Source of the DNA: Candidatus Parcubacteria bacterium | GTDB lineage: Bacteria; Patescibacteriota; Patescibacteriia; Patescibacteriales; UBA12075 | NCBI GenBank assembly: GCA_023137275.1 | Contig: JAGLPO010000040.1 | Coordinates: forward strand, 1 to 46,318 | DNA: 46,318 nucleotides | Direction of reading: 5' to 3' | In this document: one piece after another, positions 6,777 to 40,981 of the stretch | How the letters are laid out: every line of letters begins with the position of its first letter | Numbering within the stretch: position 1 is the stretch's first letter | Program-made: the position numbers and the translations under genes | Notes under the pieces: generated by a model | The model's database searches: none | What the model was told of the DNA's origin: nothing | Seen by the model: the letters and a program-made list of their open reading frames with translations, nothing else

Positions 6777-7763
6777 ATGCAAAAAAAATTTTTAGTTTTT
6801 TTGGTGTTGTTCGCGTTTGTCTTTACTTTAATTTTTAATTTGCAAAGCTCAAGCGCTTCCCCTGGTTTAGCGTTTAGAAAAGTTAAAAACGTTAAAATTC
6901 ATCCCAAACAGTTTTTACCCGGGGAATCCGCGGTTAAAGGCAGGCCAAATGACGGCCCTCCGGGACTGGACAAGCCGGATGACGGCGATAGCGCTGTTGT
7001 CCGTTATACAACAGGCTCTCTAGGCTCTCCGCTGGCAAATAACGCGAATAAATACGCGATTGTGGTCGGTATTTGCGATTATGCCGACACTTACGAGGGC
7101 GACCCATATTATTACGCGAAAGATATTTGCCTTTCTGACGGCGACGCGAAAAATATGAATGAGGCCTTGGTAAATATTTACGGATATGATGAGAAAAATA
7201 TTATTCTTTTGCGCGACAGCGATGCCACATCAACAGGCATAGTAAACGCTATAAATAAAATTAGCGGCTTGGAAAAAGCAGGGGATGAAGTAGTCTTTTT
7301 TTATAGCGGACATGGAGTAACCGGTGAAATTCAAGGAAGCGGCGAGGATGTGGATGAGGGTATTTTCGTACATGACAGATTGGTAATCTGGGATGATGAT
7401 TTGCGGGATTTGTTTTTTGAGTTTGACACTGATAGGATAATTTTTATTTTTGATACTTGCAAGGCCGGCGGAATGGATGACCTTGATATAGCGGGAAGCA
7501 ACCGCGTTTTAGCAATGGCAACAGACGAAACCGGGAATGCGGGCGTGTATTCAACCGGCGAGAACGGCGAGGGTTTATTCAGCCATTGGTTTGTTAAAAG
7601 CGGAATTCTTGACGGCCGGGCTGATTTTGTTGATCATGACAATGACCGCAAGGCCAAAGATGTAACAATTGAAGAAGCTTTTGATTACGCGAGCAAAAAG
7701 ACGCGTACCAGAAATCCTCAAATGATTGATAATTTTGCTAATGATCTGTGGCTTGGCTATTAA
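6777..7763 (+). CDS. Secreted caspase-like cysteine protease (peptidase C14 fold)
   Basis: Signal peptide. KYAIVVGICDY start of the caspase fold. His in FFYSGHGV and Cys in IFIFDTCKAGG, with the spacing of the C14 catalytic dyad. Confidence 0.6.
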   Translation: MQKKFLVFLVLFAFVFTLIFNLQSSSASPGLAFRKVKNVKIHPKQFLPGESAVKGRPNDGPPGLDKPDDGDSAVVRYTTGSLGSPLANNANKYAIVVGICDYADTYEGDPYYYAKDICLSDGDAKNMNEALVNIYGYDEKNIILLRDSDATSTGIVNAINKISGLEKAGDEVVFFYSGHGVTGEIQGSGEDVDEGIFVHDRLVIWDDDLRDLFFEFDTDRIIFIFDTCKAGGMDDLDIAGSNRVLAMATDETGNAGVYSTGENGEGLFSHWFVKSGILDGRADFVDHDNDRKAKDVTIEEAFDYASKKTRTRNPQMIDNFANDLWLGY

Positions 7764-7793
7764 TTGTTTTAATTTTAGTTTTATTTGTCGGCC

Positions 7794-7827
7794 AAAAAGT
7801 GTACACCCAGGTGTACACTTTTTGTTT
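7794..7827 (+). terminator. Intrinsic terminator
   Basis: AAAAAGTGTACAC-CCAG-GTGTACACTTTTT perfect 13-bp stem plus T-run. Confidence 0.8.
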
Positions 7828-7867
7828 TGCTTTTACCCGCCTGCCACGGTATGGCATTTCGGGCAGG

Positions 7868-8035
7868 TAATTTCTTTATACTTTCTTTATAAAGATTTTA
7901 TGTTTTCTTTATGATTTCTTTATAAAAATGGGGATAGTTAGTGGATAATTTTTTTTAATTTTTTTAAAATAATTTTTTAATAAATAAGATTTTTATGATT
8001 TGCCAGAATATGCCATAATTTTGCTTTAAATTAGC
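7868..8035 (+). repeat. Direct repeat copy 1 (~165 bp) carrying five 11-bp-phased TTCTTTAT boxes and a promoter-like distal part
   Basis: A 66-bp block (7883-7948) is identical to 9675-9740. Flanking similarity extends to TTTATGATTT...CATAATTTTGCTTTAAA. Boxes start at 7872, 7883, 7894, 7905 and 7916. Confidence 0.9.
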
Positions 8036-8214
8036 CGATATTTTACTACAAAATTTATTGTTAGTTGCTAGTATGTCTGTTACATTTAAGTATGGAATTG
8101 TGCTATAATAATTATAAGATTGAGCATAAGATTATTTGCCTAAAAATTATTTTTTTTGGAATATAATAAAAATATAACCCTTTTTAATATTACAAGGTTA
8201 TTTTTATAATTTGT

Positions 8215-9495
8215 ATGAAAATTTTTTTAAGTTGTAGTTTTGATGAAGAAAGAGATAAAAAAGTAGCTGAACAACTACGGGAATTTATTTCAAAAACGAT
8301 TCCTGGTTTTATTTTAAAAAAGAAAAGGCCGGCAGTTGATATTCCTTGGCTTGAAATTAAACGCACAATAAATAAATGTCAAGGCGCTATTGTTATTTTA
8401 ACCAAACATGCGAGAGCCTTTGTCCCTGTTAAAGATGAATATGTGTATATTGGAAAAAGTATTGACTTTAATCAAAAAGATGAGAACGAATGGAAAGATG
8501 ATGAATGGAGGACAAAAGGATGGCTTTTAACAGAGGCCGCTTATTGTTTGGGGCAAAATAAAAATGTGGCTATTTTTCGTGAGCAAGGTGTTAAACAATT
8601 AGGTATTTTTGAGGCTCCTGAGTATCAGCCGTTTAGTAGAGACAAAAACGGTAATTTAAAATTAAATAAAAAAGACACAGCGCATTATCTTAAGTCTGTG
8701 TTTCAGCCGTATACAGAAGACCATGATAATTATTATATAAGCTCACGTGAGAGTTCTGTATCGATAAAAAAAGATGGCTTTAGTGAATCCGGGGATATCT
8801 TTAAAGCATGTATAGTCCCTGATAAAAAGGAAAATATTATAAAACATGAATTTTCGCTGCCTCGTGATTATAAAAATAAATTTTCTTTTAATGAAATGAT
8901 GGATAATCATAATAAAGAAATTCGAACAGATAATCCATCTTTTTTCTGTAGATTAATTGATAGTAATGTAAGTAGCGGTAAAGTAACGATGACTCCAGAG
9001 TCATGTAAAAATAGTACTAATCAACAAACAAAAAATTTTAGATTAGTTTTTTCTCCTAAACTTACTTCCGGAGATTCAGTTGTATATGCGTGGGGCTGGA
9101 CGTGTCCGCAATCTTATGTTATAACCAAAGAACATGCAAAAGAAAGAAAAAATGGTTTTCCCAAAGAAATTTGTGGGATTATTAAAGGTTTTGATGATTA
9201 TTTCGCAGTTGAGAGTAATAGGCCAACATCAAGATTATTGCTAAAAGTTTATTTTGAAGAAGGTTATCCCTTATTAGGTGTTCCTGAAATACGAATAACA
9301 AATAGTCAGGGTAGTTTAATTGATGATCATAAAATTAAAGGCGCTAATACATTTCCTCGCAAAGTAAATGAGCCGAATGGTGTAGAATTCCAAAAAGAAT
9401 GGGAAGATGGACAAGTTAAACAGCATGTGACATATTTTGTTTGTTGGAAAATAAAAAATTCTAAAAGATCAAATAATTTAACAAAATCTAAATAG
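8215..9495 (+). CDS. Cytoplasmic protein with an N-terminal TIR-like / nucleoside-2-deoxyribosyltransferase-like domain and an unknown ~250-aa C-terminal domain
   Basis: No signal peptide. MKIFLSCSFDEERDKK ... GAIVILTK ... GWLLTEAAYCLGQNKNVAIF matches the beta-alpha pattern and W..E region of TIR/NDT-fold proteins. Own extended -10 (TGCTATAAT, 8101-8109). Confidence 0.4.
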   Translation: MKIFLSCSFDEERDKKVAEQLREFISKTIPGFILKKKRPAVDIPWLEIKRTINKCQGAIVILTKHARAFVPVKDEYVYIGKSIDFNQKDENEWKDDEWRTKGWLLTEAAYCLGQNKNVAIFREQGVKQLGIFEAPEYQPFSRDKNGNLKLNKKDTAHYLKSVFQPYTEDHDNYYISSRESSVSIKKDGFSESGDIFKACIVPDKKENIIKHEFSLPRDYKNKFSFNEMMDNHNKEIRTDNPSFFCRLIDSNVSSGKVTMTPESCKNSTNQQTKNFRLVFSPKLTSGDSVVYAWGWTCPQSYVITKEHAKERKNGFPKEICGIIKGFDDYFAVESNRPTSRLLLKVYFEEGYPLLGVPEIRITNSQGSLIDDHKIKGANTFPRKVNEPNGVEFQKEWEDGQVKQHVTYFVCWKIKNSKRSNNLTKSK

Positions 9496-9509
9496 AAAGG
9501 TGGTGAAAT

Positions 9510-9551
9510 ATGAAAAATATAATTAAAAGTGAGGGTAGTTGTTCTGATTAA
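9510..9551 (+). CDS. Possible 13-aa micro-ORF (MKNIIKSEGSCSD)
   Basis: AAAGGTGGTGA Shine-Dalgarno-like sequence 5 nt upstream of the ATG, 15 nt after the stop of the TIR-like gene and before its terminator. Confidence 0.2.
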   Translation: MKNIIKSEGSCSD

Positions 9552-9618
9552 ATAAGTCTGACCCCAGAAAGCAGGTTTTATTGTAAAAAAGAAATGAATA
9601 TGTACATCAGAATCTGTT

Positions 9619-9646
9619 AAAAATCGCGCATTAGCGTGGTTTTTGA
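9619..9646 (+). terminator. Intrinsic terminator (weak)
   Basis: AAATCGCGC-ATTA-GCGTGGTTT stem with G-U pairs, followed by a T-run. Confidence 0.45.
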
Positions 9647-9659
9647 TTTGACGATTTTA

Positions 9660-9825
9660 TAATCTCTTTATACATTCTTTATAAAGATTTTATGTTTTCT
9701 TTATGATTTCTTTATAAAAATGGGGATAGTTAGTGGATAAATTTTTTAAAATAATTTAAATAATTTTAATACACAGAATTTTTATGATTTCTAAAAATAC
9801 GTCATAATTTTGCTTTAAAATTAGC
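9660..9825 (+). repeat. Direct repeat copy 2 (~165 bp), same phased box array
   Basis: Boxes start at 9664, 9675, 9686, 9697 and 9708. A 66-bp block is identical to copy 1. Confidence 0.9.
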
Positions 9826-9924
9826 TATTTTTTTAGTTTTTTTTAATTGACAAATTTGGTTTAATATGTTTAGATTATATTGGGATTAATTTTTAATGAT
9901 AGAGTTTTTGGACTCTATTTTTTT

Positions 9925-11214
9925 ATGAGTAAAAAGAACAAATTAAAACAGATTAGTGTTATTGGCCTGGGTTATGTCGGCTTGCCGTTAGCGCTTTTAG
10001 TCGATATAAAAGGCTACAGCGTAGTTGGGATAGACATTGACACTAAGAAAATAGAGCTTATCAAAAAGAGAATATCTCCATTTGAAGATAAGGCAATAAG
10101 TAAGCAATTAAAACAAAGCAGGATAGAAGTTACAGACGATTTTAGCCGATTAAAAGATTCTTCAATTGTTATTATTTGCGTACCCACGCCGGTGTATAAA
10201 AATCATATGCCGAATTTAGAGTTGGTGAAAAGCGCTTCAGAGAAAGTCGGTGAACATTTAAAAAAGGGTCAGCTTGTTATTCTGGAATCAACCGTAAACC
10301 CCGGAGTGTCAGAAGGAATAGTGCAACCCATTCTTGAGCGTACTTCCGGGCTTAAATCCGGTAAGGATTTTTATTTGGCGCATTGCCCGGAACGCATTAA
10401 TCCTGGGGATGAGAAGTGGAACGTACGTAATATAGACCGGGTCGTAGGCGCTTTAAGCGATAAGGGATTAAAGATTGCCGTAAATTTTTACAGATCTATT
10501 ATTGATGGAGATATTAAATCAATGAAGTCTATCAAGGAAGCGGAGGCAGTTAAAGTGGTTGAGAATTCTTTTCGTGACATTAATATTGCTTTTGTAAATG
10601 AATTGGCTATGTCTTTTGAAAAATTGGGGATAGATGTGGTAAATGTAATTGAGGGAGCGGCCACTAAGCCGTTTGCCTTTATGCCTCATTTTCCGGGCTG
10701 CGGTGTTGGCGGCCATTGTATACCGGTTGATCCGTATTATTTGATTGAGTATGCCAAGAAAAAAGGTTTTATTCATGATTTTCTTGCCTTGGCCAGACGC
10801 ATTAATAGTCAAATGCCGGAATACGCGGTTGAACAAGTCGTGAAAGGCTTGAATGAAAAAAAGAAATCAATTAATGGCGCCAAGGTCGCGGTTCTTGGTT
10901 TGTCCTATAAGCCTGATATTGGCGACTACAGAGAAAGCCCGTCGTTTGAAATAATTAAGCTATTAAAGAGTTATGGAGCCAAGGTGGCTAGTTATGATCC
11001 GTTTGTGCTGGAAAAGTCGTCGGTTAAATCATTAAAAGAAGCGCTTAAAGGCGCTGAGGCTGTCGTGGTTGCTACCGGCCATGCTAAATTTAAAAAGATA
11101 AGTCCTAAAATATATATTAAAAACGGCGTTAAGGTTGTGGTTGATGGCCGCAATTGTTTGAATAAAGAAAAATTTCAAAAAGCAGGGTTGGTGTATAAAG
11201 GGATTGGGAGATAA
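9925..11214 (+). CDS. Nucleotide-sugar 6-dehydrogenase (UDP-glucose/GDP-mannose dehydrogenase family), probably acting on a UDP-N-acetyl-hexosamine
   Basis: NAD-binding ISVIGLGYVGLPLA. Catalytic-Cys motif GGHCIPVDP resembles WecC/Cap5O/WbpA-type enzymes more than Ugd/HasB (GGxCxPKD), from memory. ATG at 9925 preferred over the TTG at 9880. Confidence 0.85.
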   Translation: MSKKNKLKQISVIGLGYVGLPLALLVDIKGYSVVGIDIDTKKIELIKKRISPFEDKAISKQLKQSRIEVTDDFSRLKDSSIVIICVPTPVYKNHMPNLELVKSASEKVGEHLKKGQLVILESTVNPGVSEGIVQPILERTSGLKSGKDFYLAHCPERINPGDEKWNVRNIDRVVGALSDKGLKIAVNFYRSIIDGDIKSMKSIKEAEAVKVVENSFRDINIAFVNELAMSFEKLGIDVVNVIEGAATKPFAFMPHFPGCGVGGHCIPVDPYYLIEYAKKKGFIHDFLALARRINSQMPEYAVEQVVKGLNEKKKSINGAKVAVLGLSYKPDIGDYRESPSFEIIKLLKSYGAKVASYDPFVLEKSSVKSLKEALKGAEAVVVATGHAKFKKISPKIYIKNGVKVVVDGRNCLNKEKFQKAGLVYKGIGR

Positions 11215-11626: not shown

Positions 11627-12937
11627 ATGTCTACAGTATATATGGCGATATTTAATAAAATAAATTTTTTTTTAAAAATTCATAGTATTAATTCATGGGT
11701 AGTTTTTTATATTTTGGTATATATAGTATTAATTATTAAGTTGATTACAATTACACAAATTGATACAGGATTTTTTTTTAAAACTTATAGCATTGTGGTG
11801 TCGCTATATATTTTGAGTCGTTTTATTATATCTTATTTTTACGACCATAAACATCCAAAATATAATATAGATTATGAACCAACAGTTGCATTTGGTATTC
11901 CTTCAAAAAACGAAGGAGAAAATATTCGCGAAACAATTTTAAGAATTGCAAATACTGATTATCCAGTAGATAAATTTGAAATTATAGCTGTAAATGATGG
12001 CTCAGATGATAATACTTTACAGGAAATGCTTAAAGCCAAAGAAATTGCTAAAAAAAATAAAAAAGTTTTAGTAAAAGTAATAAATTGGAAAAAAAATAGA
12101 GGGAAACGTGATGGTATGGCTGAATGCGTACGTCAATCAAATAGTGAAGTGATAATTTTTATAGATTCAGATAGTTTTGTTGAGCCCAATACAACAAAAG
12201 AATTAATTAAATATTTTTCAGATAAAAATGTAGCTGCTGTTGCGGGGCATGCGTATGTAGCAAATGCAAATATTAATTGGCTTACTAAAATGCAGGACGT
12301 AAGATATTATGTAGCCTTTAAGGCATACAAAGGTGCTGAGGCAATTTTTGGGGCAGTTACTTGCTGTTCTGGGTGTTGCTCTGCTTATAGAACAAAATAT
12401 GTTAGAGATGTTATGAATGATTGGTTGAGCCAATATTTTTTGGGGGTTCGTTGCACTTATGGCGATGACAGAAGTTTAACAAATTTTATATTAAGAAAAG
12501 GATATATAACATTATATAGTCCTTCTGCCGCATCACATACATTTGTGCCAAGTACATTAGCACAATTTATGAAGCAACAATTGCGTTGGAAAAAATCATG
12601 GATACGCGAAAGTCTTATAGCGGCTACATTTATATGGAAACGGCATCCAATTATGAGCACATCTTACTTGTTGGGAGTCGCGTTAACTCTATTAGCTCCT
12701 GTTGTGGTTATTCGTACCATGATTTGGTTTCCATTTAATACTGGCGAGTTTCCTTATTTTTACTTAATTGGTTTACTGTTAATGGCTACTATTTATGGCA
12801 TGTACTATTATGCTTATAAAAAAAATAATAATTGGATTTATGGTGTAATTTTTTCTCTTTTTTATACATTGATTTTAATTTGGCAACTACCTTACGCAAT
12901 TATTACGATAAGGGATACGCGTTGGGGAACAAGATAA
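11627..12937 (+). CDS. Processive family-2 glycosyltransferase, class I hyaluronan-synthase-like (HasA/NodC/chitin-synthase clade)
   Basis: DGSDD and DSDS acidic motifs, GDDRSLTN, QQLRWKKSWIRES (QxxRW) and terminal RDTRWGTR. These mirror streptococcal HasA motifs GDDRCLTN, QQNRWNKSFFRES and NTEWGTR, recalled from memory. N- and C-terminal TM helices. Confidence 0.8.
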   Translation: MSTVYMAIFNKINFFLKIHSINSWVVFYILVYIVLIIKLITITQIDTGFFFKTYSIVVSLYILSRFIISYFYDHKHPKYNIDYEPTVAFGIPSKNEGENIRETILRIANTDYPVDKFEIIAVNDGSDDNTLQEMLKAKEIAKKNKKVLVKVINWKKNRGKRDGMAECVRQSNSEVIIFIDSDSFVEPNTTKELIKYFSDKNVAAVAGHAYVANANINWLTKMQDVRYYVAFKAYKGAEAIFGAVTCCSGCCSAYRTKYVRDVMNDWLSQYFLGVRCTYGDDRSLTNFILRKGYITLYSPSAASHTFVPSTLAQFMKQQLRWKKSWIRESLIAATFIWKRHPIMSTSYLLGVALTLLAPVVVIRTMIWFPFNTGEFPYFYLIGLLLMATIYGMYYYAYKKNNNWIYGVIFSLFYTLILIWQLPYAIITIRDTRWGTR

Positions 12938-23089: not shown

Positions 23090-23821
23090 ATGTTTAAGAA
23101 GCTTACAATGGTAGTGGCAATCGTATTTATGTTTGCCTTTACCCTAACTCCGGCTTTGGCTGGCGACATGACCATGGTAATGAACGACAATGAAGGCGCG
23201 GCCGCTAATCTTGTCGGCGCCGAGGCCAATACCGGCGGTAATTACGCGGGCGGCAGCTATGCCGGCGACGGCGGCGACGGCGGTGATATGAAGAACAGCG
23301 GTACTGACATTGAAGACAGCTCTACCGGGGCAGGCGGCAATGGCGGCAGTTCCGGGGAAGGCGGGGCCGTAATTACCGGCGACGCTGACGCAAAGGCGGC
23401 CGGTGTAAATTTGGTTAATACCAACTACACGGAAGTTGACGATTGCGCCTGTGAAGATGAAGAGGAAGAGAACGGCGCAGTTGACAGTCAGCTGGATGGA
23501 CCGGGACCGGGACCGGGACCGGGAATGTGCTGCGGCGATAAAGTTATTGTGCGCAACCACAATCGCCATCTGGGCGAGAACATGGTCGGCGCTCGCGCCA
23601 ACACCGGTGAAAACATGGCTGATGGCAGTGAAGCCGGTTACGGCGGTGAAGGCGGTGAGATGAAGAATAAGGATGGAGAAGATATTGAAAGAAGCCACAC
23701 TGGCGCCGGTGGAACCGGCGGCAACAGCGGCGTGGGCGGTTATGTTGAAACCGGCCGGTCTGACTCGCGGGCTCTTGGCGTAAATATTCTGGGCACCAAT
23801 ATTACCCGGATCAGAAGGTAG
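23090..23821 (+). CDS. Secreted Gly/Asp-rich protein with two ANTGxN...TGD modules joined by a Cys-rich acidic linker
   Basis: Signal peptide. Repeated N.NEGAA.NLV.AEANTGGNYAGGSYAGDGGDGGDMKN...IEDSSTGAGGNGGSSGEGGAVITGDA...NLVNTNYT. Linker DDCACEDEEEE...PGPGPGPGMCCGD. Ends NITRIRR. Confidence 0.7.
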   Translation: MFKKLTMVVAIVFMFAFTLTPALAGDMTMVMNDNEGAAANLVGAEANTGGNYAGGSYAGDGGDGGDMKNSGTDIEDSSTGAGGNGGSSGEGGAVITGDADAKAAGVNLVNTNYTEVDDCACEDEEEENGAVDSQLDGPGPGPGPGMCCGDKVIVRNHNRHLGENMVGARANTGENMADGSEAGYGGEGGEMKNKDGEDIERSHTGAGGTGGNSGVGGYVETGRSDSRALGVNILGTNITRIRR

Positions 23822-23832
23822 GAGTTATTTTT

Positions 23833-23859
23833 GGGAAAGGGAGTTTTTCTCCCTTTCCC
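23833..23859 (+). terminator. Perfect 11-bp hairpin between the two paralogs (attenuating terminator or processing site)
   Basis: GGGAAAGGGAG-TTTTT-CTCCCTTTCCC. No downstream T-run. Confidence 0.35.
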
Positions 23860-23936
23860 GGGCAAAAAGAAAAATAAATAGTTATAAAACAAAACGTAAA
23901 GGTCAATAATTAATTAAAAAAGTAATAATAAAACGT

Positions 23937-25277
23937 ATGAAGAAAATAATAACTTTGTCAACAATTCTGGCGTTAACCGTGTTTTCTTCCCTGCTGGCTT
24001 TGCCGGTACAAGCCGATGTAACGCCCGCGCCCAACCCCACTTTGGAAGACGCTTGCGGTTTGGATATTGCCCTTGTTCTGGACGTTTCAGGAAGCATAGG
24101 CGGTGATTTGGGTACGCTGCAAACCGCGGCCAAAGGGTTTGTTGACGCGTTTCTGCCCAGTACGCCCACGCTTATGGGGCTGGTTTCTTTCAGCTCCAGC
24201 GCGACCATTGTTCGGGATCTGACCAGCGACGCGACAGATCTTAAAGGCGCCATTGACGCTCTAAGCTCCGGCGGTTCAACGAATTGGAAAGACGCGCTTA
24301 TAAAAGGGACTAGTCTCTTGGAAGGCGGACTTGACAGGGATGACACGGACCACCCGGACCTTTTGGTGATGTTCAGCGACGGCCTGCCGAACGTGAATCC
24401 TTTGGATGATTCAATCACAGCGGCTAACCAGGCAAAAATGTCAACTTCAAGCCTGCCTATCCGCATCGTAGCGGTAGGCGTAGGCAGCGCGAGCACTTCA
24501 ACCCTGGTCTCTATCTCCGGCCCGATAGTGTCGCCACCGGCGGCAGTAACGAAAGATACTGATGTTATAATGAGTAATTTTGACGATCTGGCGACCACGC
24601 TCGGCAATCTGGCAAACGCCCTTTGCGATGACGCGAACGGATGCGTTGATTGCGACCATGGCCCGGATATTGTCATCAATGACAATGAAGGCGCGGCAAT
24701 AAATCTGGTCAGCGCCGAGGCCAATACCGGCGGTAATTACGCGGGCGGCAGCTACGGAGGCGATGGCGGTGACGGCGGTGACATGAAAAACGGGAATGAA
24801 GAAGAAGGCGGTGATATTGAAGACAGCTCTACCGGGGCAGGCGGCAATGGCGGCAGTTCCGGAGAAGGCGGGGCCGTAATTACCGGCGACGCTTCTTCTA
24901 CAGCCGGCGCTCTTAATGTCGTTAATACTAATTATACCGACATTGATCGCTGCGCTTGTCAAGAGGAGAATTGCTGCGAGGATGAATGCTGCTGTGATCT
25001 TGACCTGGTGCGTAACCGCAACCGGGCGATTGCCTTTAACGGCGTAAGAGCGCGGGCCAACACCGGTGAAAACATGGCTGATGGCAGTTATGCCGGTTAC
25101 GGCGGTGAAGGCGGCAAGATGAAAAATGAAGGCAACGATATAGAAGGCAGCCACACAGGTACCGGCGGTACAGGCGGTAATAGCGGCCCTGGCGGCTACG
25201 TCGAAACCGGACGGTCAGATGCCAGAGCTTTTGGTGTAAACATAGTCAACACCAATATTACCCGCATAAGACGCTAG
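23937..25277 (+). CDS. Secreted von Willebrand factor A (vWA) domain protein fused to two ANTGxN...TGD modules
   Basis: Signal peptide. MIDAS LDVSGS ... GGSTNW ... MFSDG. C-terminal half is paralogous to 23090..23821, with long near-identical DNA stretches. Same NITRIRR end. Confidence 0.8.
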   Translation: MKKIITLSTILALTVFSSLLALPVQADVTPAPNPTLEDACGLDIALVLDVSGSIGGDLGTLQTAAKGFVDAFLPSTPTLMGLVSFSSSATIVRDLTSDATDLKGAIDALSSGGSTNWKDALIKGTSLLEGGLDRDDTDHPDLLVMFSDGLPNVNPLDDSITAANQAKMSTSSLPIRIVAVGVGSASTSTLVSISGPIVSPPAAVTKDTDVIMSNFDDLATTLGNLANALCDDANGCVDCDHGPDIVINDNEGAAINLVSAEANTGGNYAGGSYGGDGGDGGDMKNGNEEEGGDIEDSSTGAGGNGGSSGEGGAVITGDASSTAGALNVVNTNYTDIDRCACQEENCCEDECCCDLDLVRNRNRAIAFNGVRARANTGENMADGSYAGYGGEGGKMKNEGNDIEGSHTGTGGTGGNSGPGGYVETGRSDARAFGVNIVNTNITRIRR

Positions 25278-32660: not shown

Positions 32661-33293
32661 ATGTTTTTAAAAAAGAAAAAAAAGCCGGTTTTAAAAATTT
32701 TGGTTTTATTTTTGGAATTTTCAGCCATTGCCCTGGTTTTATATTTAATTGCTTTGCCTTTTTATCCTTCAGTTAAATATAAAACTACGATAAAAGAATA
32801 TAGCCAATTGCCGGAAGCTGAGGAAAGAGTGATCATTCAGGAGCAAGTGGCGGAATTTAAGAGCGGCTTGCCGACAAATGAATTTGATGTTTCGCCAAAC
32901 AGGGTAATAATCCCCAAAATCGGGGTTAACGCGCCTATTGTTGTTACTGAGAATTCCAAATACGGGCTTAGCCAGGGGGCCTGGCTGGTGCCAAATACCT
33001 CCACGCCTGATAAAGGCGGCAACACGGTAATAACGGGCCATCGTTTTAAATATTTGCCTCCTCATAATTTAACATTTTATTTGTTTCACAAACTGGAAAC
33101 AGGGGATTTGGTTTCAATCGTCTGGAAAGAGCGTGATTATTTATATAGAATTAAAGAAACGCGGATCGTTGAACCCACCGAAGTTTCAATCATGGATCCA
33201 ACCAAAGAACCAACCCTGACCATGTTTACCTGCCACCCGATCTATTCAACCGAGCAAAGATTAGTTGTAATAAGTGAACTGGTGGAAAGTTAA
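32661..33293 (+). CDS. Sortase-family transpeptidase
   Basis: N-terminal anchor. His in NTVITGHRF, Cys in TLTMFTCHP (TLxTC motif), Arg in EQRLVV. Confidence 0.8.
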   Translation: MFLKKKKKPVLKILVLFLEFSAIALVLYLIALPFYPSVKYKTTIKEYSQLPEAEERVIIQEQVAEFKSGLPTNEFDVSPNRVIIPKIGVNAPIVVTENSKYGLSQGAWLVPNTSTPDKGGNTVITGHRFKYLPPHNLTFYLFHKLETGDLVSIVWKERDYLYRIKETRIVEPTEVSIMDPTKEPTLTMFTCHPIYSTEQRLVVISELVES

Positions 33294-39695: not shown

Positions 39696-40262
39696 ATGTC
39701 TAATATCACTAAAAGAATAGTAAAATTAGCAATTTCAAAAAAATCGGTTTTCACTACCGATGAATTGGCTTTGGCATGGAAAATTACAAACAAAAATGTT
39801 TTGCGGGTAACAATTAACAGAAGCATTAAAAATAATTTTCTTAAAAAAATCAGAAGAGGAATTTATTCATTGGACAAAAAAGAAATCAATGTTTTTGAGT
39901 TAGCCTGCAAACTTAAAAAAAGGTCATATATCAGTTTTGAAACAGTATTAAGCCAAGAGGGAATAATATTTCAATGGCAAGATAAAATATTTTTAGCCAG
40001 CGACAGGACGTCAGAGATAAAAAATAAGCAAGGGAAATTTGTTTATAAAAAAATACCTGATAAAGCATTATATAATAATGACGGAATAATTAATAAAAAA
40101 AATTATTTTATTGCCACCAAAGAAAGGGCATTGTGCGACAAAATATATAAAGACGGTATAAGCTATTTTGATGATTTATCAGGGATAGATAGAAAAAAAA
40201 TATTTAGAATAGCCAGGCTTTATAATAAAAGGCTGGAAAGAGATATTAAAAAAATATTATGA
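39696..40262 (+). CDS. abiEi: AbiEi-like antitoxin / transcriptional regulator (type IV TA, abortive-infection AbiE family)
   Basis: N-terminal wHTH-like VFTTDELALAWKI...NFLKKIRRGIYSL. 4-nt overlap (ATGA) with the downstream AbiEii-like gene. Confidence 0.55.
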   Translation: MSNITKRIVKLAISKKSVFTTDELALAWKITNKNVLRVTINRSIKNNFLKKIRRGIYSLDKKEINVFELACKLKKRSYISFETVLSQEGIIFQWQDKIFLASDRTSEIKNKQGKFVYKKIPDKALYNNDGIINKKNYFIATKERALCDKIYKDGISYFDDLSGIDRKKIFRIARLYNKRLERDIKKIL

Positions 40263-40981
40263 GAATAGATAAAGAAAAACATAAAAAAATAATGCTGAGC
40301 ATATTGGCGGATATTTCCAAAGATCCCGAGTTATCTGTTAATCTTGGCTTTAAAGGCGGTACCTGCTGTTATTTTGTTTATGGTTTGGATAGATTTTCCG
40401 TAGATTTGGATTTTGATTTGCTGGACGCGGGAAAAAAAGATTTGGTTTTAAAAAAAATGGATGAATTATTAAAAAAATACGGAACAATTAAAAAAGAAAG
40501 CAAAGAATCGCGCGTAAAATTAAAATATTCAGATGACAGCAGCGCTTTAAAGATTGATATTTCATCAAGAGATGAATTAAATCGTTTAAATAGCTATGAA
40601 ATTACAGATATTGTATCAGGCGTTCCCTTGAATATATTAAAACAAGAAGATATGTTCGCGCACAAGCTTGTGGCAGTTAAAGATAGATTTGAAAATAAAT
40701 CAGCAAATAAAATAATCGCTAATAGGGATATTTATGATATAAATTTTTTCTTTAATAAAAATTGGGGGATTAATTATGAGATAGTAGCGCTTAGAAGAAA
40801 AAAAGACGCGAAATTATATTTTAAAGAATTAATGGAATTCATAAAAAAGAATGTTGATAATAAAAATATTTTAGACGGGATTGGGGCTTTGGTCAGTGAT
40901 GAAAAAAGAAAATGGGTAAAAAATGAATTAAAAAATGAAGTTATCAAACAATTGGCTATTCAAATTAAGTCAATGGAGTAA
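40259..40981 (+). CDS. abiEii: AbiEii/AbiGii-family nucleotidyltransferase toxin (DUF1814)
   Basis: FKGGTCCYFVYGLDRFSVDLDFD matches the GG[TS]...R.S.D[IL]DF nucleotidyltransferase signature of AbiEii. Confidence 0.65.
   Translation: MRIDKEKHKKIMLSILADISKDPELSVNLGFKGGTCCYFVYGLDRFSVDLDFDLLDAGKKDLVLKKMDELLKKYGTIKKESKESRVKLKYSDDSSALKIDISSRDELNRLNSYEITDIVSGVPLNILKQEDMFAHKLVAVKDRFENKSANKIIANRDIYDINFFFNKNWGINYEIVALRRKKDAKLYFKELMEFIKKNVDNKNILDGIGALVSDEKRKWVKNELKNEVIKQLAIQIKSME

Follow-up and report, generated by a model that had tools for sequence, protein, structure and literature searches.

SpbK of Bacillus subtilis ICEBs1 is a single-protein TIR NADase abortive-infection system in which the portal YonE clusters the TIR domains and so turns the NADase on (PMC12847820). 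Vulcan, also a single-protein defence, has an N-terminal NIR/DUF4062 NADase with the catalytic residue E98, joined to HEAT repeats (bioRxiv 10.64898/2026.09.04.749371). A gene of comparable design lies in a stretch of 46,318 nucleotides (nt) from a Candidatus Parcubacteria bacterium, here called the window, whose source sample is a cold-seep metagenome. The gene occupies positions 8215-9495 between two direct repeats and encodes a protein with a TIR-type N-terminal domain (the N-domain) and an all-beta C-terminal domain (the C-domain).

As in SpbK, one gene supplies a TIR domain together with a non-TIR, putative sensor domain; SpbK is carried on horizontally moving DNA. The domain order is nevertheless reversed, the sensor of SpbK being N-terminal and its TIR domain C-terminal (PMC12847820), and the candidate sensor here is an unrelated beta-sandwich of ~240 amino acids (aa). 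SpbK was absent from the PDB and PADLOC matches, and no sequence similarity was detected between it and the window protein. Vulcan likewise is encoded by a single gene and begins with a domain of the TIR-like clan that cleaves NAD, as is presumed here; a catalytic Glu near residue 100 (E98 in Vulcan, putatively E107 here) and a C-terminally fused domain, protein-binding in Vulcan and putatively so here, are further points in common. The N-domain described here matches TIR_2, however, and not DUF4062, and the C-domain is all-beta instead of being built from HEAT repeats.

Two further groups are related at the level of the N-domain. Thoeris ThsB, a bacterial TIR protein of small size, belongs to the same Pfam clan, and a ThsB-like gene stands next to one relative of the window gene, but ThsB lacks the C-terminal domain seen here. 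The window protein is not a member of that system: no ThsB model of PADLOC matched any member of its family, and no ThsA gene (SIR2, Macro or SLOG) adjoins the TIR gene in the window or in the inspected relatives. Nucleoside 2-deoxyribosyltransferases (NDTs; PF05014) have in common with the N-domain a flavodoxin-like fold and, putatively, Glu-dependent N-glycosidic chemistry. NDTs differ in being single-domain metabolic enzymes, and the sequence profiles favor TIR_2 (8/16 members) over NDT (1/16, sub-threshold).

The explanation preferred here, at roughly even confidence, is that a single-protein TIR gene, a candidate for defence, was acquired horizontally and stands behind a promoter-upstream module that has been duplicated, with the N-domain acting as a TIR-family N-glycosidase. 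The product is probably a one-gene anti-phage suicide switch, a mechanism drawn by analogy with the single-protein TIR/NIR defence proteins SpbK and Vulcan. A phage-derived protein or ligand would bind the C-domain and the TIR domains would then cluster. Cleavage of NAD+ would follow, through depletion of the cofactor and/or formation of an ADP-ribose (ADPR)-type product, and the infection would abort. The gene and the parts of its product are as follows.

8215..9495, + strand: gene for the TIR plus beta-sandwich protein, 426 aa, cytoplasmic, without signal peptide
8215..8715, + strand: TIR-type N-terminal domain, aa 1-167 (profile matches, AlphaFold, Foldseek)
8410..8514, + strand: insertion of about 29-35 aa (aa ~66-100) between βC and αC (alignment; predicted local distance difference test, pLDDT, 44-47)
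8533..8535, + strand: codon GAG for Glu107, the putative catalytic residue in W103-L-L-T-E107 (alignment to 7xoz)
8731..9453, + strand: C-terminal all-beta domain, aa 173-413 (AlphaFold, Foldseek)

In a Pfam scan of 16 family members, TIR_2 was matched by eight at E <= 1 and CAP12-PCTIR_TIR by four; Nuc_deoxyrib_tr and DUF4062 were matched by one each. The member P0010 is built from the same two domains and is matched by the window query at E 5.7e-9; it scored 31.2 bits against TIR_2 (PF13676; cut-off 28) over model positions 4-119 of 122. The TIR membership of the window protein rests on transitive homology, since P0010 stands above the cut-off and the window protein below it. The NDT model was matched only by P0011 (E 0.003, 18.2 bits, cut-off 28.8) and the NIR/DUF4062 model (PF13271) only by P0010 (E 0.12, 13 bits, cut-off 24.7), neither score conferring membership. 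The sole Pfam match of the full-length window protein was to RWD, below threshold (E 0.003); it lies in the beta-domain and was judged spurious because no other member has it.

A phmmer search of the PDB sequences with the window protein returned nothing. The family profile, run against the PDB, matched with its N-terminal part only TIR chains (SNC1, RPP1, 7xoz, Cat1 and SARM1), with weak E values of 0.02-1.4. In the alignment to 7xoz, a plant TIR, W103-L-L-T-E107 is paired with the W and the catalytic E of SSSWCLDEL. Glu107 is kept in 14 of the 15 members that have the N-domain and, judged from the W-x-x-x-E motif, is likely to be the catalytic residue. This assignment is the best motif match and not a structure superposition, as the alignment to 5h3c shifts the register by five residues.

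An AlphaFold model calculated with a two-sequence alignment reached pLDDT 41 and was set aside; the model used was built on the 16-sequence alignment (mean pLDDT 77.8, predicted template modelling score, pTM, 0.66). The N-domain is predicted to begin with βA (2-6), αA (12-28), βB (33-35), αB (45-54) and βC (57-62), and to continue with αC (102-113), βD (117-123), βE (138-142) and αE (152-167). This beta-alpha-beta order over aa 1-167 is TIR/flavodoxin-like in the model. Foldseek against BFVD aligned the N-domain with small TIR/NDT-like proteins over 134-193 columns at a probability of 0.99-1.0, including giant-virus nucleoside 2-deoxyribosyltransferases (probability 0.99, template modelling score TMt 0.55-0.60). 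The initial annotation had read the N-terminus as TIR- or NDT-like, from motifs that are indeed found in the translation. The resemblance to viral NDTs bears out a fold of this type, and TIR_2 in 8/16 members (one above the cut-off), the TIR matches of the profile in the PDB and the AlphaFold model agree with it. A flavodoxin-like fold in a model does not by itself separate TIR from NDT; by the sequence profiles, TIR is the better assignment for the N-domain.

The remainder of the protein, initially described as an unknown domain of ~250 aa, is indeed a fused domain without a Pfam family in the scan. It is all-beta in the AlphaFold model (aa 173-413, ~240 aa). Foldseek against the PDB found it to be like the N-terminal beta-domain of M1 aminopeptidases (LTA4H, ERAP2), 3kd4 and the OST subunits (ribophorin), at E 3e-6 to 5e-4, and against BFVD it matched VIT-family and M1-like proteins. 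A large beta-sandwich is common to the C-domain, this M1 aminopeptidase domain, DUF3857 (3kd4, a putative protease) and VIT over ~260-290 columns. At 5-12% identity and a whole-query TM of 0.22-0.31 the likeness is one of fold only, and the C-domain differs from these proteins in having no attached peptidase, transglutaminase or vWA domain and no Pfam match. By analogy with the systems above, it is most likely a previously undescribed beta-sandwich that would act as a sensor or assembly module.

The family is extremely small. A word-indexed search of a 5.8-billion-protein database gave one relative, and HMMER, run exhaustively on 1.84 billion cluster representatives, gave 15 proteins at E <= 1e-3. 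Searching the 5.8-billion-protein database with the family profile added only P0015 and P0017. Full-length members have 357-426 aa and align in one common two-domain architecture. They were found in Parcubacteria (the window), Sungiibacteriota, Elusimicrobia and one Woesearchaeota archaeon; on viral contigs, no relative was found. Such a patchy distribution is typical of horizontally moving genes, and the TIR gene was probably acquired horizontally.

The window is AT-rich (GC 37.7%) and its long open reading frames (ORFs) are all on the + strand. Its nucleotide-sugar dehydrogenase has its best matches among proteins of Candidatus Parcubacteria / Patescibacteria. Around the TIR gene, the following features were located.

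6777..7763, + strand: Peptidase_C14 (caspase-like) gene, the upstream neighbour (Pfam PF00656; PADLOC 'caspase', E 7e-11)
7793..7824, + strand: intrinsic terminator of the C14 gene, a 14-bp stem followed by a T run (terminator scan; inverted repeat)
7838..7867, + strand: GC-rich hairpin CCTGCC...GGCAGG directly 5' of copy A (folding, weak z of -1.6)
7868..8044, + strand: direct repeat copy A, the promoter-upstream module (repeat search, blastn)
7883..7948, + strand: 66-nt core of copy A, 100% identical to 9675-9740 (exact match)
8102..8110, + strand: extended -10 box TGcTATAAT of the presumed TIR-gene promoter, giving a leader of about 100 nt (read by eye)
9616..9647, + strand: terminator-like hairpin 3' of the TIR gene, with A-tract, 14-bp stem and U-tract (free energy -16.1 kcal/mol, z -3.6)
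9660..9833, + strand: direct repeat copy B, core 9675-9740, 5' of the ugd promoter and without a GC hairpin before it
9847..9876, + strand: promoter-like site TTGACA-18-TAGATT of the polysaccharide operon, downstream of copy B (consensus scan)
9925..11214, + strand: nucleotide-sugar dehydrogenase gene (Ugd/WbpA-like), the first of the ugd-GT2-deacetylase operon

The initial annotation had placed an ORF with its own promoter and terminator between repeats at 7868-8035 and 9660-9825 that share a 66-bp identical core, and had assigned one repeat to the regulatory region of the polysaccharide operon at 9925. The ORF, which starts with ATG, is the sole long one at that place, and the repeats are real and slightly longer. 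Copy B does precede the promoter-like site of ugd. The hairpin 3' of the gene would serve as its terminator; the promoter is suggested by the -10 box, which a two-hexamer consensus promoter scan did not flag. As far as these signals can be read, the TIR gene is a stand-alone transcription unit with a terminator and a presumed promoter of its own, and the C14 gene is probably not part of it. The protein encoded by the C14 gene has a hydrophobic signal or anchor at the N-terminus of its translation. No RNA family from Rfam was found within 7000-11000. Just past the TIR stop codon (9497-9552), a strong Shine-Dalgarno-like AAAGGTGGTGA stands 5 nt before the ATG of a 13-codon ORF, MKNIIKSEGSCSD, which could be a micro-ORF or what is left of a downstream gene since lost.

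Copies A and B are 87.7% identical over 163 nt with two gaps (blastn, E 9e-39). The 66-nt core occurs exactly twice in the 46-kb window and gave 0 matches in 100 shuffles. Identity is uneven along the repeat, at 13/15, then 66/66, then 75/97 positions, and a perfect run of 66 columns is unexpected from the overall identity of 86.5% (permutation p = 1.4e-4). The left ~60 nt (positions 7868-~7927) are made up of ~11-nt TTTCTTTAT(A/G)N units in an array, with the palindrome TCTTTATAAAGA among them, and in each copy the array ends in TTTCTTTATAAAGATTTTAT. Homology between the copies begins exactly at the array, which is preceded by the GC hairpin at copy A and by the TIR terminator at copy B. A DnaA box or origin reading of GTGGATAA in the core was rejected, there being 18 matches in the window against 14 expected and a GC skew without a switch.

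Arrays of the same unit recur in L006, a related genome from the same study that carries the closest Ugd (83% identity), where they stand at three separate intergenic sites before TTGACA promoters. The L006 elements (560-700, 1403-1503 and 12249-12304) consist of a GC-rich hairpin, two to six TTTCTTTAT(A/G)N units in varying number and then AAGCTTAAGYGGGGAAAGGGGTTTGACATAGGCAGGAAAA; in two of the three, the GC hairpin lies directly 5' of the array, as in copy A. Such elements may be arrays to which a regulator binds or, alternatively, small repeats of the Parcubacteria. The left part of the window repeat is accordingly a lineage-wide promoter-proximal motif and not the product of an insertion, because the L006 arrays precede other promoters. 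A segment of ~200 nt is also duplicated 3' of two of the L006 elements (~1500-1710 and ~12300-12510); with its promoter-like site TTGACT...TAGAAT and terminator AACCGCCTTTTGGCGGTTTT, it may be a two-copy small RNA gene. In metagenome contigs of the JGI collection, a copy-specific 21-mer had 0 matches. A generic 20-mer had 32 exact matches, most of them apparently by chance in coding DNA, and a few contigs show the same motif context.

From these elements a different account of the locus can be drawn, according to which the two repeats are independent instances of a dispersed lineage-specific regulatory module, for example the binding array of one transcription factor. The TIR gene and the polysaccharide operon would then be co-regulated neighbours without an insertion scar. 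The three intergenic L006 arrays, each with TTTCTTTATAAAGATTTTAT, after a hairpin and before a TTGACA promoter, fit this account, as does the position of both window copies upstream of promoters. In addition, a core identical at 66/66 positions next to sequence at 77% suggests that constraint by selection, or gene conversion, was at work and not a fresh duplication. Nevertheless, the ~115 further nt of the repeat (ATGGGGATAGTTAGTGGATAA ... TTTTGCTTTAAATTAG) are common only to the two window copies, being absent from the L006 elements and the JGI collection, and only two copies occur in 46 kb. The window copies are therefore each other's closest relatives, as local duplication predicts, and they represent a genuine local duplication of one module. 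Independent modules are a possible explanation that falls well short of an even chance. Binding-site constraint, gene conversion or a crossover within the segment can each give an identical core in diverged flanks, and the data favor none of them. Since copies A and B lie upstream of each, the TIR gene and the ugd operon carry the same upstream module.

The preferred reading, a horizontally acquired TIR defence gene behind a duplicated module, draws its defence component from the neighbourhoods of relatives. P0002 has as neighbours a HEC-01 A/B pair, a resolvase and two DNA methyltransferases, of which one carries an Mrr-type nuclease domain, and P0003 adjoins two N6/N4 (N6_N4) methyltransferases. 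P0006 sits behind an IetA-like AAA ATPase, P0012 between a Ppl-like protein on one side and, on the other, a ThsB-like TIR accompanied by an 8xMP protein, and P0011 directly behind a cytoplasmic caspase-like protein. Defence-type neighbours were thus present in five of eight informative contexts, a small sample, and the family recurs beside defence genes. At every locus inspected the gene appears to stand alone. Guilt by association points to a single-gene conflict system, and the initial suggestion of a candidate single-gene defence is in this sense plausible.

In the window, and likewise beside the distant P0011 (L054, 13-960), a Peptidase_C14 gene directly precedes the gene of the TIR family. 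The two C14 proteins are 22% identical (E 0.002); that of the window has a signal peptide or anchor and that of L054 is cytoplasmic. The pairing may be a coincidence or a loose association. Within the window, 30 kb from the TIR gene, lies an AbiEi/AbiEii toxin-antitoxin / abortive-infection pair (39696-40981; PADLOC E 2e-38 and 6e-54).

Several observations weigh against the preferred reading. By itself the window protein reaches no Pfam threshold, its N-domain scoring 16.2 bits against PF01582 TIR (E 0.009) where the cut-off is 21.3. The fold match of the N-domain was read only from the viral library BFVD, because all matches among the top 50 listed in the whole-model PDB fold search fall in the C-domain. 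The insertion at aa ~66-100 is unique to the window protein among the 16 members, and this low-confidence segment of ~30 aa (pLDDT <50), just before the catalytic helix, might impair activity. No PADLOC model, one of the checks proposed in the initial annotation, matched any of the 16 members, including the window protein. Housekeeping genes adjoin three of the eight informative relatives; at P0010, at the Elusimicrobia locus and in the window itself, the neighbours are of the housekeeping or envelope kind. In the window, the TIR gene is surrounded by secreted peptidases and the polysaccharide operon, with no defence island. Composition (GC and GC content at third codon positions, GC3) does not mark the gene as foreign, because its GC3 of 0.20 is the same as that of the downstream glycosyltransferase genes.

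Some of these observations would suit a protein that is no immune effector at all. An N-glycosidase of the wider TIR/NDT/LOG-like clan with a metabolic or regulatory role, its substrates being nucleosides or nucleotides, is one such candidate, and a non-catalytic scaffold is another; the shared upstream module might tie the protein to envelope polysaccharide synthesis. The Foldseek matches to NDTs, the Nuc_deoxyrib_tr score of one member (E 0.003) and the lack of PADLOC matches are compatible with this, and the window gene does stand beside a nucleotide-sugar operon with the same upstream module. One relative, moreover, sits between genes for an NAD(P)HX dehydratase and an FAD oxidoreductase. 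TIR_2 is nonetheless the most frequent and the strongest Pfam match, and the profile matches in the PDB are to TIR only. Extreme rarity and a patchy distribution set the family apart from metabolic enzymes, and no relative adjoins polysaccharide genes whereas five of eight adjoin defence genes. A non-immune role is considered unlikely.

The initial annotation had also proposed the insertion or duplication of a single-gene cassette, which recombination between the repeats would delete precisely. In the source run (SRR13892604), the depth was 25.8 for the cassette unitig, 21.6 for the left-flank contig and 50.3 for the 66-nt core unitig. With two core copies per genome and no cassette deficit, no cassette-free subpopulation is visible, and a rare deletion would escape notice in contigs, the 66-nt core being too long for a 31-mer to span. 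Four other runs, one of them from another study, held identical fragments of the TIR gene at low depth. The proposed check for presence or absence in relatives turned up no single-repeat empty site among those examined, and L006 is not syntenic. Relatives with a syntenic ugd-GT2-deacetylase operon (Ugd 73% identity) have different upstream genes, no TIR-family gene upstream and a CTATGAAAG tandem array instead. This 9-mer tandem of at least eight copies separates a promoter-like site from the start of ugd (L009 7352-7425; L010 2842-3050, with an assembly gap inside the latter) and resembles a simple-sequence tract of the phase-variation type.

The window ORFs that were scanned yielded no recombinase, integrase or transposase domain, and six homologous loci showed no repeats flanking the family gene. 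At L016 995-1395, three direct repeats of ~37 nt (TAATAATAAAATGAAAGGATGTAGAGTATAATTTGAT-like) occur in the 425 nt upstream of P0010 and none downstream, so they do not flank it. An attC-like hairpin site was rejected as an identity for the window repeat, which is instead a promoter-upstream module; of the features that a mobile cassette would have, the scanned ORFs gave no recombinase and the six loci no travelling sites. An actively excisable or integrating cassette is very unlikely. On that view a ~1.79-kb circle with the gene and one module would have entered by a single Campbell-type crossover in the 66-nt core and could loop out again, so that cells with and without the gene would be mixed in the population. 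The layout (an identical-core direct repeat, diverged on both sides, with a complete transcription unit between) and a core that forms a separate unitig at about twice the depth would suit it, but the cassette is not less deep than the left flank, integrase, recombinase and transposase are missing from the scanned ORFs, homologues lack flanking repeats and none lies on a viral contig.

Of the initial proposal, the repeats and their local duplication stand, and insertion or duplication is a reasonable history for the locus. The depth, recombinase and homologue-repeat tests lent no support to the cassette, and an active mobile cassette at this locus is not supported. As to the precise deletion, the 66-nt core is long enough for homologous recombination and a RecA-type loss of the TIR gene between the 66 identical bases is plausible; nothing indicates that it takes place.

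Elsewhere in the window, two ORFs at 23090-25277, one with a vWA domain, are compositional outliers, with a GC of 0.54-0.57 against a window average of 0.38. Both fall within a cluster of genes for very large surface proteins (DUF11, SpaA-like, TSP3, Kelch and LCAT), and a sortase gene occupies 32661-33293.

In its widest form, the preferred reading of a single-protein TIR defence gene would make the window protein the founding example of an undescribed family of single-protein TIR immune sensors, found mainly in ultra-small symbionts, namely bacteria of the candidate phyla radiation (CPR) and DPANN archaea. The M1-N/VIT-like sandwich would sense a phage component and so set off TIR clustering and the cleavage of NAD+, and in this genome the gene would sit in a recombination-prone unit, with an identical module core at either end, that could be lost and regained in the population. 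This extension is offered tentatively and is given clearly less credence than the reading from which it grows.

The immune systems of CPR bacteria and DPANN archaea are poorly charted, and the standard defence finders overlook this TIR gene entirely. The TTTCTTTAT-unit module, found at several promoters of related genomes, offers a separate way into the little-known transcriptional regulation of Parcubacteria. Were the protein an NADase triggered by phage, the modular repertoire of TIR effectors would gain a new sensor domain, and the gene would join the few candidates for single-gene defence that minimal genomes have provided.

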